This document shows, piece by piece, positions 31,046 through 47,834 of a stretch of 64,000 nucleotides of DNA (position 1 is its first letter; the number at the start of each line of letters is the position of its first letter). The DNA comes from Escherichia coli (lineage in GTDB: Bacteria > Pseudomonadota > Gammaproteobacteria > Enterobacterales > Enterobacteriaceae): NCBI RefSeq assembly GCF_024298765.1, contig NZ_CP101212.1. One strand, 5' to 3'. Both the position numbers and the translations under genes were made by a program. The notes under the pieces were generated by a model. It made no database searches. It had not been told where the DNA came from and saw only the letters and a list, made by a program, of their open reading frames with translations.

Positions 31046-31160
31046 ATAACTATACTCCCCGCATAGCTGAATTGTTGGCTATGCGGTTTTATGGGGCCCC
31101 GGTAATCTTTCTAGTCGCCAAACTTGAAGAAGATTATCGGGGTTTTCGCTTTTCTGGCTC
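31046..31160 (+). ncRNA. copA: Predicted CopA-type antisense RNA region (coordinates approximate)
   Basis: Expected antisense to the repA leader between copB and tap; plus-strand hairpins with U-tracts at 31059-31091 and about 31098-31150; boundaries not resolved. Confidence 0.25.
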
Positions 31161-31817: not shown

Positions 31818-32024
31818 TTACTTCCGTGCTTCGTAGGCCAGAGTTACCTGCACCACTGTATTTCCTCTGTGAATATTCAGCTCACATAACCGTTCCCTGA
31901 ATATCAGTGAAAAACACAACACCGTGGCGCACACGGCGAGCAACCCGATAAGGGCATATTTCGTCATAAACTTTGACCTCTCAGCAAAGAAGAGGCTACA
32001 ATCAGTAGTGTTAAGGTACTTCAT
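31818..32024 (-). CDS. srnB: Hok/Gef-family type I toxin, SrnB-like
   Basis: 68 aa MKYLNTTDCSLFFAERSKFMTKYALIGLLAVCATVLCFSLIFRERLCELNIHRGNTVVQVTLAYEARK; single TM with the hok-family C-terminal motif. Confidence 0.8.
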   Translation of the reverse strand: MKYLNTTDCSLFFAERSKFMTKYALIGLLAVCATVLCFSLIFRERLCELNIHRGNTVVQVTLAYEARK

Positions 32025-32483
32025 GCAGACCTCACGAGTTAATGGATTAACGAGTGGGGTCTTCGCATTTCTGGTACCTGCGTCTTGCCTGAACCAGAAA
32101 GGCTCAAACACCCGCCGCGATAATACCACATTCCCTGTTGCTGACTATTACCCCCATTTGCCTGTTTTTGTTACAAAAACGCCGGGAGCGGGGGAAAACT
32201 TACTTTTTCCCGTTTCCGGGGGGGACAACTGAGCATTGCGAACGCGTCAGCTACGATGTTCCGGTGATTGCTGATCAGCCCCTGTTGTATTCATAAACTA
32301 ATTAACATTCATTCTGTCTGGTGCATAAATCTGCCCGTGAACATCTGCAGACAATACCGGCCATGAAAAGATAAATAATACCAGTGGAATATATTTCCTC
32401 ATGTTATTCTCCATATCAGATAAATGGCACCTGTATTTCAGCCCCCCTGAATATCGCAGCACACATTGAATAAGACCTTATTT

Positions 32484-32499: not shown

Positions 32500-32606
32500 A
32501 AATATAAAATCGCGACTTAATACGGAAAAAACTCTGTGCTACTCAGAACTGGCCGGTCATACTGCCCGACCGGATATTAAAAAAAGCAAATCTCATAAAC
32601 TCCTTT

Positions 32607-32647
32607 CAGCCTTCTGACTCCTGGAGTAATGAAGGCTGCTTTTTTCG
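32607..32647 (+). terminator. Plus-strand hairpin plus U-tract
   Basis: cagccttc ... gaaggctg stem with a 16 nt loop followed by CTTTTTTC. Confidence 0.35.
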
Positions 32648-32860
32648 TTACACCCTTCCCCGGCAGCGCCGGTGGCAGTGTTCAGCCCTTTTCCGGGCAA
32701 ACTGTTGCCAGTCTGTCCGGGGAGCTATGCAGGCAGCCCGTCGCCATGCTTCTGCCGCTTCCATCCAGCGTCCACTGACCTCCAGAATAACGGCCCGCCC
32801 GCCGGCACGCTGGTAACGCCAGACCTGACCGTTCCGTGAACTGTTTCTGAATCCATTCAT
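32648..32860 (-). CDS. Hypothetical small protein (70 aa)
   Basis: ORF only; no recognisable motifs. Confidence 0.3.
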   Translation of the reverse strand: MNGFRNSSRNGQVWRYQRAGGRAVILEVSGRWMEAAEAWRRAACIAPRTDWQQFARKRAEHCHRRCRGRV

Positions 32861-40695: not shown

Positions 40696-40923
40696 ATGGA
40701 AACCACCGTATTTTTCAGCAACCGCAGCCAGGCGGTCAGACTGCCAAAAGCGGTTGCATTGCCGGAAAACGTAAAACGCGTTGAAGTGATTGCTGTCGGA
40801 CGAACCAGAATCATTACGCCAGCCGGAGAGACATGGGACGAATGGTTCGACGGACACAACGTCAGCGCCGATTTTATGGATAACAGGGAACAGCCCGGCA
40901 TGCAGGAAAGGGAGTCATTCTGA
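40696..40923 (+). CDS. vapB: VapB/VagC antitoxin (AbrB/SpoVT fold)
   Basis: 75 aa; overlaps the vapC start (TGATG). Confidence 0.85.
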   Translation: METTVFFSNRSQAVRLPKAVALPENVKRVEVIAVGRTRIITPAGETWDEWFDGHNVSADFMDNREQPGMQERESF

Positions 40924-41321
40924 TGCTGAAGTTTATGCTCGATACCAACATCTGCATTTTCACGATAAAGAACAAACCCGCCAGCGTCAGGGAGCGTTTT
41001 AACCTGAACCAGGGGAGAATGTGTATCAGTTCGGTCACCCTGATGGAGCTGATATATGGTGCAGAAAAAAGCCAGATGCCTGAACGTAATCTCGCTGTGA
41101 TCGAGGGATTTGTTTCCCGCATTGATGTTCTGGATTACGACGCTGCCGCAGCCACACACAGCGGCCAGATAAGAGCAGAACTTGCCCGTCAGGGACGCCC
41201 TGTCGGGCCATTTGATCAAATGATCGCAGGTCATGCCCGCAGTCGGGGACTGATTATTGTGACTAATAACACCCGGGAATTTGAACGTGTGGACGGTCTG
41301 AGAATTGAAGACTGGAGCTGA
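40923..41321 (+). CDS. vapC: VapC/VagD PIN-domain toxin
   Basis: 132 aa; MLDTNICIF N-terminus, acidic PIN residues. Confidence 0.85.
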   Translation: MLKFMLDTNICIFTIKNKPASVRERFNLNQGRMCISSVTLMELIYGAEKSQMPERNLAVIEGFVSRIDVLDYDAAAATHSGQIRAELARQGRPVGPFDQMIAGHARSRGLIIVTNNTREFERVDGLRIEDWS

Positions 41322-41329
41322 CCTGTTCA

Positions 41330-43483
41330 TCAGAAATCATCTCCCGGCTCAACATCCTCCCCGCGCTCCCGGTGCACATTGATGTTCACCTCTTCACGAC
41401 GCTGCATCTTCTGCTGGATATCCGGATTCTGCTCCCGTTGCCATGCCTCATAAACGGCCATATCCACCACTTCACCGGATTCACTGATCCCGGGTGGCAG
41501 TTGCTGTTCCATCTCTTCTTCCGGTTTCATTTTCAGCTCCTGCTCGATCCCCCCTGCCGGAACATTCACACCTGCATCTGACTTCTTATCGTTGATGGCA
41601 GGAGACACCGGCTGTTGCGGCTGTTCAGCCTGAGTCACGTCTTCTCCGGAAACAACCTCCGGGACATCCGGTTCGAAGAGGCTGGCCATCTGACGACCTT
41701 CTGCTTCCCTTGCGGCAAGTACGGCACTCAGACGGTTCTCCATTTCCGGGTTGATGTCACGCGGAATAAACTCCGGAGCGACCTTCGGTCGTGTCTGATA
41801 TTTCAGGGAGAGTTTTACTGCCGGATACGGTCCGGGCAGGGTGACATAACAGGTCAGATCCGGCAGAGACTGAATGTCGGAATAACTGACCAGCGTCTGA
41901 CGCTCCATATCCTTACCGGTCGATACCCCGTCACGTACCGGATCAGCACCGTAGGAATACTGCTCGCTGGCTTTCAGGTGCTCTTTCTCACCAATTTCAC
42001 CGGCAGCGAACTCTGCAATCTTATGGCTGGGAGAACGGAAAAAGGCACGGGTGTTCATGACGTCAAACAGCGTGGCAGCCGCTTTCTCACCGTAGATATC
42101 TTCCAGCTGGGCATAGGACTGGATACCAAACACATAACAGCCACCGAACTTACGGGCTTCCGGCAGGATCTCCACCAGATCCGGCAGTTTGTGTAACGTG
42201 GGTAACTCGTCACAGAAAAACCACACACGACGGTTACGGTTTTCTCCCATTGCCAGCAGACCACGAATAGCAATGGACAGCCACATGGAGATCACCGGCT
42301 TCAGGGAGGCATGGGTGTCGGCGTTCGACGAAATAAACAGCCAGCCGTTTTTCTGATCTTCCCGGACACCACGCATCCAGTCACGGATGGTGAAGGGCTC
42401 ACCGTTATGCTCAATCCCCTGCAGGTAACGGATGGCTTTCACGTAGTTGGTCAGCACAGCACGGATGGATATGGCCGTTTTCTCGATTTTCTCTTCCACC
42501 AGGTTGGCCGCCGGTGAATTACGCAGGAAGGTACGCAGCTTTTCAATTTTGATGGAAAGCAGTGTGTCCACCAGTTTGCTGTAGCTGCGGTTGGGGTCAT
42601 TACGCATCAGGTATGCCGCTTCCGCAAAAATGGTACGTCCTGAACCCTGCCAGAACGGGTCCTCTTTTGTCCCCATCGGGATCAGAGTATTTGCGGTATT
42701 ATCAAAATCTGGCTGTGTCAGGCACTCCTTCCACAAATCCCAGGCAGCACAGCGTGCATCCAGCGGATTCAGGATTTTATCGATGGAGGGATCATAGTAA
42801 CTTTTAACAAATTCCCCCGAACGGTCATAAATCACCACCATATCACCACGCTGACGGGCGTAGTTGGCCAGACGACGGATAACCTCCGACTTACCGGCCC
42901 CGACAGTGCCGTGCAGACAGAAGTTCTGGATTTCAGAATCCCGGATAATCGGCAGATCGCCAATCCGGATATCGGAATCCTTGCCATCTTTTTTCAGCAT
43001 CCTGGCCACCTCTTTCGGATTGTCAGTCAGCTGACGACCACCTGTGATTTCATTTTCGCTCTGTTGTTTACCCTGACGCCCCAGAATCCAGGAGACAACA
43101 AAGAAGGTGATCAGGCAGATAACCAGGGCCACGACAGACGCCAGAACGAATGCCGACCATAACTGCTCACCGCACCAGATCATATATTTATCATGCAGTA
43201 CCTGAGCCGCGTTCATCCGGAAGGTTTTGCCGTAATACTGGATCTCATAGACCGGCTGGGACCTGATTAAATCCCGCATGCCTTCCAGCGTGGTGCACCA
43301 CCAGTAAATGCAGCCATTCACAAACGTCTGCCAGCTTATTTTTACCCATAAAACCAGACCAACTAGGATCCAGAAAAAAATAAACAGGCAGTAAAGTATG
43401 ATATTGGCGATCTGACTGAACATGCGGATACGCATGGACGCAATCTGACCGCCCTGGGTCATATCCTTTGCGTTAAAACTCAT
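41330..43483 (-). CDS. traD: Type IV coupling protein TraD
   Basis: 717 aa; Walker A GTVGAGKS; C-terminal QQP-rich tail. Confidence 0.95.
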
Positions 43484-43634
43484 GATGATATTCTGAAGAA
43501 AGAAAGTCAGTCGGACTGATTATTAATGATGAAAAGATTAATAACCGTTAAATTCCGGCTTCGCCGGCAACACTTCACGGTCGCACAAAGAATTTGCACA
43601 ACCGCTCAGTGTTTTCATATTTATTTCGGAAACG

Positions 43635-43670
43635 CCGGGGAGAAATAAAATTTATTTTATTTCTCCCCGG
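43635..43670. repeat. 17 bp perfect inverted repeat between traT and traD
   Basis: ccggggagaaataaaat-tt-attttatttctccccgg; possible traT terminator or protein-binding site. Confidence 0.5.
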
Positions 43671-43735
43671 GGTTGGACAACGAGCAAAGCGAGGCGTCAG
43701 TCAGGAGGCCGGTCAGACCAGCCTCCGGAAGATAA

Positions 43736-44467
43736 TCAGAGAATATTTGCGATTGATTTGGCCAGCTGGTCTTCGAGAACAGGCTTCGCCTCTTCAAATT
43801 TCAGGTTAACCTTGTTCGCATTTGAGACCACACGGGTCTGGTATTTATGCTGGTTACCTGTTTCAGTACTGGTCTGAATTTTCGCACCTGATGTGCCCTG
43901 ACGCAGGGCGGCAACATTATCCGTTGTCACCGTTGCCTTAGTACGCTCTGCAATCTGCACATCCGTGATCATGGTATAGTTCACATCTTCCACCATCGCA
44001 TCTGCAGCCATACCCACCAGACCGGCAGCAAGGCCCACACCGAGTGTGGCACCGGCAGAATTGGAATTATATCCGGTGATACCGGCACCTAACGCTGCAC
44101 CAACTGCTGCGCCTTCATAACCACGGTTCAGCCATCCCTGAGACTCCCGCAGATCCATCTTATCGGCCTTCAGCACATTCGCCTGAATCCAGTAGTAGGC
44201 TTTATCCGGAGAAGTCACCACCTGATACCCTTTTGCTTTCACAGCATCAGCAATTTTGCCCTGCAGCCCACTCATGTCTTTATCAGACGTGTTTTTGATC
44301 TGCAGAAATACCGTGCGTTCGCTGGCGGGTTCAAGCCAGATGGTCTCACTCATCTGAGTCTTCACCTCAAGGTTACGCTTCTTGATTGCTGTGCTCATCG
44401 CACCACACCCTGAAAGGGCCAGAGTGGAACTGACCAGTGTAACCATCATCAATTTTTTTGTTTTCAT
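43736..44467 (-). CDS. traT: Surface exclusion / serum resistance lipoprotein TraT
   Basis: 243 aa from [21 protein letters not shown] (lipobox). Confidence 0.92.
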
Positions 44468-44498: not shown

Positions 44499-44996
44499 TT
44501 ATTGCCTGTCATAATAGTCCTGCCAACGAGTCCCAAAAGTATTTCCCGCTGAATCAAAGCCTCCATGCATAGGATATCCGGTTGAAGGGTTATAGTAGAT
44601 CGTTGGGGTCTGTTCAATGCCCCCGAAGTCTAACTTTTCACTCCCATCATATTGGTCTTTGAGTTGATTTTGCCCCCATTTTTTTATGCTTATGCAACCA
44701 CTAACTTGCCTTAATTCGTATAGTGTACCAATGATAAAAACCATCAGGCTTAATAACGGAGAGAGTAAGGAAGATACTGGCATCGTTATATACCAAACGC
44801 CTTTACTAAACTTAAACTCATCCGACACATCCCGTTTTTTTCGTATTTGAGAGAACAACCAGATAAACAGTCCCTGCCATAGCACTATGAAGAACAGCAT
44901 AAAAACTGTTTCGGCATTCCCCCAATCAGCCAGATAACAGGCGATAAACTGTATCACTGTTACCAGAGCAATATGGGCTAAACATCTCATTATCAT
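44499..44996 (-). CDS. traS: Entry exclusion inner-membrane protein TraS (by position)
   Basis: 165 aa hydrophobic protein between traG and traT. Confidence 0.7.
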
Positions 44997-45011: not shown

Positions 45012-47834
45012 TTATTGCTTATACTTATCCTGATACTCCTTTGCCCTTTTCATCAGTTCCTGTGGACTGTCAGCCCCGGGCATTCTTTCCTGAGCCGACT
45101 TTTCTTCATTATATTTATTATTCTGAGATAATGCCTCTGTTTTATGGTGATTCTGCAGTTCAGAATACTGTCCTCTTACAATATTTTCCTCGCCACGTAT
45201 GCTGTTCTGAGTATCACCTATATTCCCTTTATATTCTGTGACCATATTATCAACCTGATGTTTTACATCATTACGGATATTACTGTCCTGCATTCTTTGC
45301 TCAATAATGGCCTGATGTCCCTGATGGTCAGCAATAATATCCTGACTGCCTCCACCCGAAGGTACGCTCTCCATTCCTTTACCAATATCGCCACGGGATT
45401 CCCGCCAGGCATTATCAACACCAGGCTGTATCTGTTCCTGCACAAAAGACCAGGCCATTGCCCGACGGCGTTCTGCAATCTCCGGCGAACTGGTATTTGT
45501 CAGAATAGCTTCGGCATCCTGCGGTGCGTGTTTCATCACATACTGTGCAAACTGTTGCGACAAATCTTCGCTCATCTGCCCACTCATGCTTTCAGTACGG
45601 GATGCCATTTCAGCATATTCATGGCTGCGGGTCATATTCGTCGTGTACTGGTCGTAACTCTGTTTCGCTGAATTCAGGGCTGCAGACAGTTGATCCACCC
45701 GGGAATCAGCATTATTGTCAGTATGGCTGCCGGATTCACTGACTTTGCGACTGGTAAAGTAATCGCTGGCCTCTTTAAAGTCCTTACTGGCTTTAGCGTC
45801 AATATCATGACGAGCATCATAGCTGGCCCGTGAACCACTGCTGGCCTGATGCGCATCATCATCACTCCAGTCAATGCCAGCCCGACCACCACCTCTAACG
45901 CCTAATCCTCCACCAACACCAAGAATTTTAGGTTTAACCCCCCATTCAGCATGAGCATCTCCATACATCCCGGCAGAAGCTCTCGTACTTCTGGATGCCA
46001 GTTCCTGAGTCGCCTGCTCATTACTGATATTATGCGCCTTCGCATAGCTTTCCACTGCACTGCGCATACGGCTGGCCATCATGGAGTCCTGTGCACTCAT
46101 CGTACTGTCAGCACCACTGGTGACAGAGTCACTGCTCCCCCGGTTAGAACCAAACTGACTGAGCGTGTTCCAGGCACTGGCAATACTGCTGCTGAAACCA
46201 TGCAGGGCACTTTCTGCTCTGTTCGACGCCTCCCGGGCCATTTCCTGTTGTGCCACTGCAATCTGACGCGTTGCATTGATACCGACCGGTAAACGGGACA
46301 TCGCTCCGCTTGCATCCATCACCATATTACCGTCACGGGTCTGTGTGGCGGTTGCGCCACTGCCGGTCTGGTACATCATCTGACCAAACGACGTGGTGCT
46401 GTTGGTGCTCCAGCTGAAGCCGTTCACGTTTTCCGTCTGCATGTTGCCGTAGGAGTAATTACCGTCAACCACACTACCTGCCGCACTGGCAGTCGGGCTG
46501 ATAGCAGAGGAAGCGAAATGGCTGTACACACTGGAAAATCCGGCCCCAAGCCCCCTGACCATCATCCAGGATAATGGCGGGATCATCATGGAAAGATACC
46601 CGGCAGTGGAAGCCAGATCGGAGTATTTCAGTTGTATCTGTGAAATTTCAGAGAGCACCACCGGCGCACCATTCTGTTTCGCATAAAATGTCATGGCACT
46701 GTTCAGAATGGCGTACAAGAGTGGCCATGACTGCAGCCACATCAGGGCAAACACATAACCTTTCAGGACAGACAGCGTCAGTTTGTTGAATACAGCCGCC
46801 AGTACCAGGAGCGGGAAAATACCGATGGCGATCCCCGTCAGGATGGTCTGCGTCATGGGCAGTGTCCGCATCGCCACATGACCGATGGAGACATGTGCCA
46901 GACGTTGTTTCTCCATCGATGACGTGGTGGCCAGATTCACCAGGCTGGCCGAATCACCATTACGTGCGGCATAACTGGTGATCCCCTCCTTCAGCGCATT
47001 GATGGTGACATTCTGGCGGATGATCTGGCTGGCTGATTTACTTGAGCCATAGAAGTAACTGTAACTGTCGCCAATCAGCGTACTGAACAGCAGGTTAGGA
47101 TCAGGGCGTCCACCAAATAGCTGCTGGGCATAATAATGCCAGGTTTTTCCGCCACTCTGTGTGTCCAGATTCAGCTTGTCTTTCAGCGAAACCGACGCGT
47201 CCTTACAGGTTACGAAATTATTATTGCTGTCATAAACGCCCCGCAGCGGGCTGGGGCGGGAAAAAATCAGCGTGTAGGGATCAGCGGAGGCCATCAGCTC
47301 CTCCAGCGTGTATTTGTGGTTCAGGTAAATATCCCCCATAACACAGTTCTGCACATAATCCTGGAAAAGATTGGCGATTTCCGGATTGCGGGACAAAAAG
47401 TCGGTGCTTTTTGATACCAGTTCTGCGCCAAACAGCATCCCCGTTTTGCTGTAGGTGACACTGTCCGGTTGCGTGAAGATCATCTCGTAACTGGCCACCA
47501 TTGCATGCCCGATACGGGTCGTCAGTGAAAGTGGCATCGCCAGTCCGACCGGCACATTATCCACCCGGTGAACTTTGACCAGGTCACTGTTATCAATAAT
47601 CTGCACCGATGTGCGGACATTAACCAGCAGGCTGATAAGCACAAATACGGCCACCCAGCCCAGCAAATCCATCACGTTGTGCCGCTGTACCCACATTACG
47701 GCCACCGCGAGAACAGACAATGTGAGCGCAATTTTTTCAATGGAATCCCACGTCCTGGTTCCCATAAAGGCGGCAATGGCGTTCAGGTTATTCCGCAACC
47801 ACTCACCACCGGCAATCACATAAACTTCATTCAC
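45012..47834 (-). CDS. traG: Mating-pair stabilisation protein TraG
   Basis: 940 aa; synteny. Confidence 0.93.
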   Translation of the reverse strand: MNEVYVIAGGEWLRNNLNAIAAFMGTRTWDSIEKIALTLSVLAVAVMWVQRHNVMDLLGWVAVFVLISLLVNVRTSVQIIDNSDLVKVHRVDNVPVGLAMPLSLTTRIGHAMVASYEMIFTQPDSVTYSKTGMLFGAELVSKSTDFLSRNPEIANLFQDYVQNCVMGDIYLNHKYTLEELMASADPYTLIFSRPSPLRGVYDSNNNFVTCKDASVSLKDKLNLDTQSGGKTWHYYAQQLFGGRPDPNLLFSTLIGDSYSYFYGSSKSASQIIRQNVTINALKEGITSYAARNGDSASLVNLATTSSMEKQRLAHVSIGHVAMRTLPMTQTILTGIAIGIFPLLVLAAVFNKLTLSVLKGYVFALMWLQSWPLLYAILNSAMTFYAKQNGAPVVLSEISQIQLKYSDLASTAGYLSMMIPPLSWMMVRGLGAGFSSVYSHFASSAISPTASAAGSVVDGNYSYGNMQTENVNGFSWSTNSTTSFGQMMYQTGSGATATQTRDGNMVMDASGAMSRLPVGINATRQIAVAQQEMAREASNRAESALHGFSSSIASAWNTLSQFGSNRGSSDSVTSGADSTMSAQDSMMASRMRSAVESYAKAHNISNEQATQELASRSTRASAGMYGDAHAEWGVKPKILGVGGGLGVRGGGRAGIDWSDDDAHQASSGSRASYDARHDIDAKASKDFKEASDYFTSRKVSESGSHTDNNADSRVDQLSAALNSAKQSYDQYTTNMTRSHEYAEMASRTESMSGQMSEDLSQQFAQYVMKHAPQDAEAILTNTSSPEIAERRRAMAWSFVQEQIQPGVDNAWRESRGDIGKGMESVPSGGGSQDIIADHQGHQAIIEQRMQDSNIRNDVKHQVDNMVTEYKGNIGDTQNSIRGEENIVRGQYSELQNHHKTEALSQNNKYNEEKSAQERMPGADSPQELMKRAKEYQDKYKQ

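Follow-up and report, generated by a model that had tools for sequence, protein, structure and literature searches.

The window, by which we mean the whole 64-kb stretch of DNA analysed here, carries an F-type tra operon that reads on the minus strand. Following traG (45012-47834) there is an entry-exclusion gene (44499-44996), then traT for the surface exclusion lipoprotein (43736-44467) and, beyond a spacer of 252 nt, traD for the coupling protein (41330-43483), all four on the minus strand. The spacer holds four stem-loops, numbered HP1 to HP4 in the tra direction. HP2, the second of them, is the subject of this analysis; it is part of the tra transcript and sits 65 nt past the traT stop codon. 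The spacer and the adjoining gene edges are 100% identical to those of pCREC-544_1 (locus L001), an E. coli IncFIB/FIC plasmid in which the RefSeq annotation has traT and traD flanking the spacer. The orthologous hairpin of F also sits between traT and traD of the operon; the flanks are collinear, with 0/110 differences, and the hairpin differs at 2/36 positions. Jalajakumari et al. reportedly sequenced the F traT–traD locus in 1987 and tested it for promoter and terminator activity, the same locus is said to have been treated by Ham et al. in 1989 (Plasmid 21:1), and the R100 locus reportedly by Ogata et al. in 1982. Further downstream, a VapB/VapC-like gene pair (40696-40923 and 40923-41321, plus strand) is located between traD and traI, where it converges on traD and stops 9 nt short of the stop codon of traD; vapBC is annotated at the same position in F and in the plasmid at locus L134.

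HP2 had originally been predicted as a 17-bp perfect palindrome with a 2-nt spacer in the traT–traD intergenic region. This description is accurate in every detail: the arms, at 43635-43651 and 43654-43670, pair at 17/17 positions, and the whole element (43635-43670, minus strand in the sense of tra) falls between the TraT ORF, which ends at 43736, and the TraD ORF. Written in window letters it reads ccggggagaaataaaat-tt-attttatttctccccgg, with tt at 43652-43653. When a single strand folds, the stem comprises 16 bp and the loop 4 nt, the innermost of the 17 pairs being sterically impossible. The stem can be extended to 43631-43674 (minus strand) by three further pairs (AAC/GUU) past one mismatch, C·C in the sense strand or G·G in the plus strand, and a repeat finder returns these extended arms as 21 nt each with 95% complementarity; judging from the pair counts among alleles, the outer pairs are less conserved than the core. 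With its 16 core pairs (17 with the innermost one) and three outer pairs the stem is to be set against an RNase III criterion of ~20 bp of double-stranded RNA. It is G+C-rich at the base and A/U-rich in the upper half.

The palindrome is real, non-random and far from chance. It ranks top among the short-loop inverted repeats of the whole 64-kb window, for which we estimate a chance expectation of 64000 × 11 × 4^-17, or ~4 × 10^-5, perfect 17-bp inverted repeats with a spacer of at most 10 nt. Within a 101-nt context the RNA folding z-score is −4.7 for the tra-sense strand and −4.4 for the plus strand, with 0/200 shuffles folding as well, and the 44-nt element folded as DNA gives z of about −7 to −7.6. 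The sense RNA of the window allele has a predicted energy of −26.6 kcal/mol. HP2 occurs as a single copy in the window and is borne near-exclusively by plasmids in E. coli, on which grounds a dispersed repeat of the REP/BIME type was rejected.

The absence of a U-tract on both strands had likewise been claimed, together with the view that HP2 is not a simple intrinsic terminator, and both points are borne out. The stem is followed by CGUUUCCG in the sense strand and by GGUUGGAC in the plus strand, which provide 3 U and 2 U, respectively, within 8 nt, where the criterion is at least 5 U in 8; a terminator scan calls HP2 on neither strand. Since the U-tract is missing on both strands, HP2 is not a canonical intrinsic terminator. 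HP2 does share with Rho-independent terminators a stable stem with a G+C-rich base, a 4-nt loop and a position just downstream of a gene, and terminator activity is reported to have been measured for the traS–traT region of F (Jalajakumari et al. 1987, J Mol Biol 198:1). It differs from them by the lack of a U-tract, by a stem of 16-17 bp, which is unusually long, and by the A/U-rich upper half of this stem, and a better candidate is available further downstream in the form of HP4. A role of HP2 as the Rho-independent terminator of traT thus seems very improbable to us.

Other readings of the local sequence were tried and rejected. A promoter scan makes no call at HP2 on either strand. A promoter-like arrangement found by hand in the sense strand, TTGTCC-15 nt-TAAAAT, has too short a spacer, and R100-type alleles lose the first T of its −10 box. 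An attenuator-like pairing of the HP2 3′ arm with the downstream sequence GAAAUAAA is impossible in R100-type alleles. A small ORF beginning at an ATG just past HP2 was discarded, since Enterobacter- and Citrobacter-type plasmids lack this start codon and the stretch shows the covariation of an RNA stem. Searching the whole window against Rfam at gathering thresholds gave nothing in the spacer, and a permissive search of the spacer with Rfam 15, up to E = 10, only chance-level hits (E 0.2-10). Elsewhere in the window the search at gathering thresholds found AS-traG (RF02874; 47030-47115) and AS-traI (RF02873; 37689-37765), both on the plus strand, as well as AS-pc02 (32566-32751, plus), CopA (31063-31151, plus), sok (31955-32113, minus) and STnc490 (356-477, minus).

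HP2 is embedded in a conserved non-coding block of 146 nt (43555-43700, minus strand) that starts with CTGACGCC, continues through HP2 and ends with HP3 and HP4. Apart from the hairpin itself, only 0-1 of 110 positions of this block differ among the window, F and R100-type alleles. Immediately upstream of the block, and beginning 7 nt past the traT stop codon, lies HP1 (43701-43729, minus strand), a G+C-rich stem-loop with energies of −19.7 kcal/mol in the sense and −15.8 kcal/mol in the antisense strand. Its G·U pairs are on the tra-sense strand, and this pattern recurs in pSLT and in Enterobacter-type plasmids. As HP1 carries sense-strand G·U pairs, it is an mRNA structure. All the traT-bearing plasmids that were examined have HP1 at the same position, with differing sequences; it has the look of a conserved hairpin at the traT 3′ end.

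Downstream of HP2, HP3 is a long stem-loop (43569-43613, minus strand) whose covariation is kept even in the distant F-like plasmids of Enterobacter and Citrobacter. It has four G·U pairs in the sense strand and none in the antisense strand, with energies of −33.8 vs −18.6 kcal/mol. HP4 is a short GC hairpin (GCCGGCGAAGCCGG; 43555-43568, minus strand), followed in the window by AAUUUAAC. Taken together, HP3 and HP4 (43555-43613) amount to a stem-loop of ~60 nt plus the short GC hairpin, with compensatory changes between F and the Enterobacter- and Citrobacter-type plasmids (loci L005, L007 and L008). The pairing is retained at 94.8% with four compensated pairs, counted on just eight sequences, and Rfam 15 contains no family for this region. 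By this pattern of change HP3-HP4 is clearly an RNA structure of the sense strand, located upstream of traD or of an optional ORF. Such an ORF, hypothetical and of ~230-245 aa, is found just after HP4 and before traD in R100-type and Citrobacter/Klebsiella-type plasmids (positions 1748-2485 in L003, which is pHN7A8; 1738-2427 in L007; 684-1373 in L008), and is missing in the window and in F. In Citrobacter/Klebsiella-type plasmids HP4 is trailed by a genuine U-run, which makes it the leading candidate for a terminator of traT transcripts. The HP3-HP4 region may thus be either the real traT terminator or a leader element of traD. Since HP1 and HP3, the neighbours of HP2, are mRNA structures, the spacer as a whole represents an RNA-structured module.

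Many IncF plasmids have a spacer identical to that of the window, and elements of this kind are common on plasmids. The spacer query matches 4594 plasmids in PLSDB, and an 81-nt query centred on HP2 matches 3997 PLSDB records and 3100 RefSeq records of E. coli. Among complete E. coli genomes the HP2 query is found in 2736/5426, almost always on plasmids (5149 plasmid places vs 63 chromosomal ones); the usual two places per record are probably one palindrome matched on both strands. Three main alleles can be told apart by identity bands of the 81-nt query. The window allele (at least 99% identity) accounts for 407 E. coli and 341 PLSDB records, the F-type allele (95-99%) for 1605 and 1790, and the R100-type allele (80-90%) for 1072 and 1630, respectively. 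The pSLT type constitutes a further allele group, in Salmonella. By scanning metagenomes with the invariant flanks as anchors we obtained 120 additional loci, and these together with all other fetched loci comprise 15 distinct hairpin alleles; further scans yielded only 4 loci in genome contigs and none in viral contigs.

Comparison with the F spacer, as proposed along with the original prediction, shows that the F hairpin is imperfect. At stem positions 5-6 of the tra-sense 5′ arm it carries AA instead of the GG of the window, so that 15/17 positions pair and two A·C mismatches are left on the tra-sense strand; in the window, pairing is restored to 17/17, with 34/36 identity inside the hairpin and, as stated above, none of the flanking positions changed. 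The R100-type allele differs from the window at 9/36 hairpin positions and keeps two mismatches as well. Perfect stems are rare and exist in two 'corrected' forms, GG/CC as in the window and AA/TT at locus L021, and a one-step intermediate, GA/GG, is represented by L136. Because the F version is imperfect, perfect pairing is an allele-specific detail and not a conserved property. The window HP2 is a minority allele of the known hairpin of the F-plasmid traT–traD spacer, which is ordinary and widespread.

HP2 is also absent from a number of related plasmids. F-like plasmids of Enterobacter and Citrobacter and a divergent E. coli IncF plasmid (L005, L007, L008) possess HP1, HP3 and HP4 and are without HP2, and so are IncFII(K) plasmids. 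On this distribution HP2 is lineage-specific, belonging to the classical plasmids of the F/R100/pSLT lineage.

What is conserved in HP2 is its pairing rather than its sequence. Pair counts made on 13 distinct alleles give compensatory double changes in 5/19 pairs, comprising 15 cells, and a covariation score that none of 500 shuffles (0/500) and none of the slid controls reaches. Between the window and R100-type alleles, 9/36 positions differ in the hairpin and 1/110 in the rest of the block (Fisher 1.2 × 10^-5), while at four-fold synonymous sites of traD 28/224 differ (12.5%). The hairpin divergence of 25% is about twice the traD synonymous level and that of the flanks, 0.9%, lies far below it, so the flanks must be under strong sequence constraint. 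The HP2 stem changes at or above the neutral rate and the pairing is nevertheless retained. Inside HP2, the outer CCGG and the central AAAATAAATTTT are conserved. As far as can be judged from this pattern of substitutions, HP2 is a stem-loop selected for its structure.

That pairing is kept while the sequence drifts argues for a nucleic-acid hairpin and against a protein operator, and on this point the original prediction, which had named a protein-binding site as one possibility, is not supported: the changes preserve complementarity and not a half-site. We have considered a double-stranded DNA operator for a dimeric regulator, encoded by the plasmid or the host, or for a FinQ-like factor. 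The perfect dyad symmetry and the two conserved motifs could be read in this way, and FinQ is reported to terminate tra operon transcription at multiple sites, although none has been mapped here (review PMC8744291). Against this, the hairpin differs at 9/36 positions between F and R100 types, in the middle of the stem and within invariant flanks, and the commonest alleles are asymmetric. An operator is accordingly a reading we hold to be very improbable. The other possibility named at the outset, an RNA processing element, remains reasonable and comes close to the explanation that we prefer.

Retained complementarity does not by itself require selection on structure. Quasi-palindromes are known in E. 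coli as hotspots of template switching, and palindromes stimulate deletions, as described by Ripley and by Lovett and colleagues. HP2 could accordingly be a functionless, self-maintaining quasi-palindrome, in which mutations in one arm are copied into the other by intramolecular template switching during replication, and complementarity would then persist while the sequence drifts. The twofold excess of hairpin divergence over synonymous divergence is what one would see if each change were copied to both arms, and the F mismatches have been 'corrected' both ways, with GG replacing AA in the 5′ arm of the window and TT replacing CC in the 3′ arm of L021, as at such hotspots, where either arm can be matched to the other. 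The absence of HP2 from other F-like lineages and the minority status of the perfect form (407/3100 in E. coli, 341/3997 in PLSDB) can be reconciled with this idea.

So can a deletion. The sequence TTTATTTC, or GAAATAAA in the tra sense, occurs as an 8-bp direct repeat at 43620-43627 and again at 43656-43663 inside the hairpin arm. At locus L134 (NZ_JBWGHW010000002.1, 2520-2545) a 36-bp deletion between the GAAATAAA repeats has removed the loop and one arm of the hairpin; the TraT and TraD proteins of this plasmid are those of pCREC-544_1, whose spacer is the same as in the window. Judging from a truncated match, H140 (NZ_CP137163.1) probably has the 36-bp deletion too. The existence of natural 36-bp deletion alleles shows HP2 to be dispensable for plasmid persistence. 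Smaller lesions are seen as well: 5 nt are deleted at the top of the stem in L141 (S. Choleraesuis pCFSAN000679_01, pSCV-type), and 1 nt in the tra-sense 5′ arm in L135 and L139, which comprise an ETEC plasmid and an E. albertii plasmid. In a Shigella dysenteriae plasmid (NZ_CP026829.1; L143, 1440-1510) an IS1 end lies 6 nt upstream of the CCGG base of the hairpin, and traT and all upstream sequence are missing; this is a single instance which may be a coincidence.

Several observations are difficult to reconcile with a functionless quasi-palindrome. Hotspots of this type are mutational phenomena, not functions, whereas HP2 has been retained in nearly all of the ~4000 plasmid records despite a ready route to its deletion. 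The surrounding flanks are far more conserved than neutral sites, as described above. The GA/GG intermediate at L136 indicates that single-base steps are sufficient to go from one paired state to the other, and the strand-biased mismatches described below would be unlikely under neutrality (~0.02). We therefore think it improbable that template switching accounts for HP2.

The block formed by HP2, HP3 and HP4 remains upstream of traD even where traS and traT have been replaced. In two metagenome contigs (L127 and L034) an unrelated gene for a 262-aa lipoprotein, intact in L127 and fragmented in L034, takes the place of traS/traT, and a short metagenome contig (L088) has the same spacer allele as these two with no traT upstream. 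A different lipoprotein-like ORF precedes the block in K. pneumoniae ATCC 13883 (L013), and at L035 an extra ORF of 86 aa is interposed between traT and the block. In L127 and L034 a small opposite-strand ORF accompanies the lipoprotein gene. All five loci join the conserved backbone at CTGACGCC, where the hairpin block begins, and this junction looks like a boundary of cassette exchange.

The traT 3′ end is a strong RNA-level boundary. RNA-seq of an IncFII(K) plasmid gave RPKM values of 231 for traS, 282 for traT, 8 for the next ORF and 7 for traD (PMC6286996, Table 1), from which we calculate a fall of ~35-fold across the traT 3′ boundary of this F-like plasmid. Since the plasmid type displaying this drop is without HP2, HP2 is not needed for it. 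Our search of the open full-text literature found no paper mapping transcript ends or antisense RNAs in the spacer; the F and R100 papers of the 1980s and the Frost 1994 review were outside its reach.

In the reading we prefer, to which we would give a probability of about 0.42, HP2 is a leaky structural barrier or processing hairpin within a multi-hairpin 3′ boundary of the traT mRNA. Folded within the polycistronic tra transcript, it would combine with HP1, HP3 and HP4 into a 3′ boundary module of the abundant traS-traT RNA. There it might act as a block to 3′-to-5′ exonucleases, as a pause site for RNA polymerase or as a processing hairpin, and would so help to uncouple high traT from low traD expression while some read-through to traD and traI persists; on its own it would not be an intrinsic terminator. 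That HP2 acts in the mRNA at all, and in which of these roles, is what we infer. The commonest alleles, F-type and R100-type, each keep two mismatches, and this would fit a leaky barrier because traD and traI need to be expressed from the upstream promoter. The window allele, with two G-C pairs replacing the two A·C mismatches of F, should then be the tightest barrier.

Intercistronic stem-loops that stabilise mRNA are well known, for example the REP sequences in malE-malF and the hairpins of papB-papA and of the puf operon. HP2 resembles them in being stable, in having no U-tract and in lying between a highly expressed upstream cistron and a weakly expressed downstream one. It differs in that it is not a member of a dispersed family and in that its natural mismatches weaken the mRNA form and not the opposite strand. 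The missing U-tract, the existence of IncFII(K) and Enterobacter-type plasmids without HP2 and the natural 36-bp deletion alleles also count against a barrier in the mRNA. So does the orientation of the mismatches, which is opposite to that in HP1 and HP3 and opposite to what a hairpin selected for stability in the mRNA would predict.

Each of the independent transition mismatches (7/7) places a disruptive A·C in the mRNA, and its counterpart on the other strand is a tolerated G·U or G·T. They are located at stem positions 5 and 6 in F, at position 10 both in R100 types and, as a separate event, in L034, at position 13 in pSLT, at position 14 in L088 and at position 1 in L003. Paired cells make up 90.7% in the sense and 97.6% in the antisense strand, and the 16 core pairs contain no G·U cell at all in the sense strand, where HP1 and HP3 do show them. 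At stem positions 5 and 6, G-C, G·U and A-U are all found among the alleles, tracing a compensatory path. The energies favour the anti-tra strand in every allele: as RNA, −24.1 antisense vs −16.2 sense for F and −25.4 vs −18.0 for R100, and as DNA, −14.1 vs −10.6 and −15.7 vs −10.0, respectively. A mutational strand bias is too weak to be the sole cause. Rare variants in traG-traD, expressed as per-target rates at four-fold sites, give G>A 53/337 vs C>T 33/247 and T>C 32/239 vs A>G 13/143, and the resulting per-target bias of 54-60% leaves a P(7/7) of ~0.02. Selection on the T-strand or on an antisense RNA is one possible reading of the asymmetry; selection for a deliberately leaky hairpin in the mRNA, its stem weakened and tuned by A·C changes, is another, and chance is a third. 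The strand bias is the main unexplained feature of HP2.

The first of these readings supposes that HP2 acts on the anti-tra (window plus) strand, either as a hairpin in the T-strand DNA during conjugation or as a stem in an antisense RNA. As T-strand DNA it could for instance be an SSB-resistant priming or entry signal for complementary-strand synthesis, or a pause site for a nuclease or helicase. The F nic-site oligonucleotide maps opposite to the tra-gene strand in NC_002483, and we take this to mark the anti-tra strand, which is also the template strand of tra, as the T-strand. Since every transition mismatch is tolerated on the T-strand, a function there remains a live rival. For an antisense RNA, one may point to the Rfam antisense sRNAs of IncF tra regions, AS-traG and AS-traI, whose matches in this plasmid backbone also fall on the anti-tra strand of the window, and to the vapBC-like operon on the plus strand, 2.3 kb upstream, that converges on traD. 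Unlike AS-traG and AS-traI, the HP2 region has no Rfam match even at E = 10, and the plus strand near HP2 has no promoter-like site upstream and no terminator-like site downstream.

To our knowledge, single-strand initiation signals of F have been found in the leading and replication regions and not in tra. Like the Frpo and ssi signals of F (Masai and Arai 1997, as described in PMC7690428 and PMC8744291), HP2 belongs to a conjugative plasmid, and the T-strand is where it has its best pairing. In contrast to Frpo (328 bp), it is far shorter and lies in tra rather than in the leading region, and a stem of 17 bp leaves no room for the −35 and −10 boxes that a single-strand promoter of the Frpo type carries. 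Moreover, the neighbouring hairpins are clearly sense-strand structures, just seven events are behind the asymmetry, and the deletion alleles persist. Action of HP2 on the anti-tra strand is thus rather unlikely, though it is the strongest rival of the mRNA barrier; the stricter claim, in which the tra mRNA is free of the pairing constraint and the transferred single strand, or some anti-tra RNA so far overlooked, is subject to it, is unlikely.

As it stands HP2 matters little: it is a common hairpin, present in about half of the complete E. coli genomes by way of IncF plasmids, in a traT–traD locus that was already sequenced and assayed in the 1980s. With respect to the barrier in the traT mRNA that we favour, the natural series of alleles, with a perfect stem, one mismatch, two mismatches or the hairpin deleted, offers a ready test of how traT is kept abundant and traD scarce. 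The strand-biased mismatches are a testable hint in another direction. We know of single-strand-active signals only from descriptions of the leading region, and if the hint proved true such signals would extend beyond it. Classical F/R100 plasmids would then carry, deep in the tra operon, a selected structural element of the T-strand, for example an SSB-resistant signal used for establishment in the recipient.
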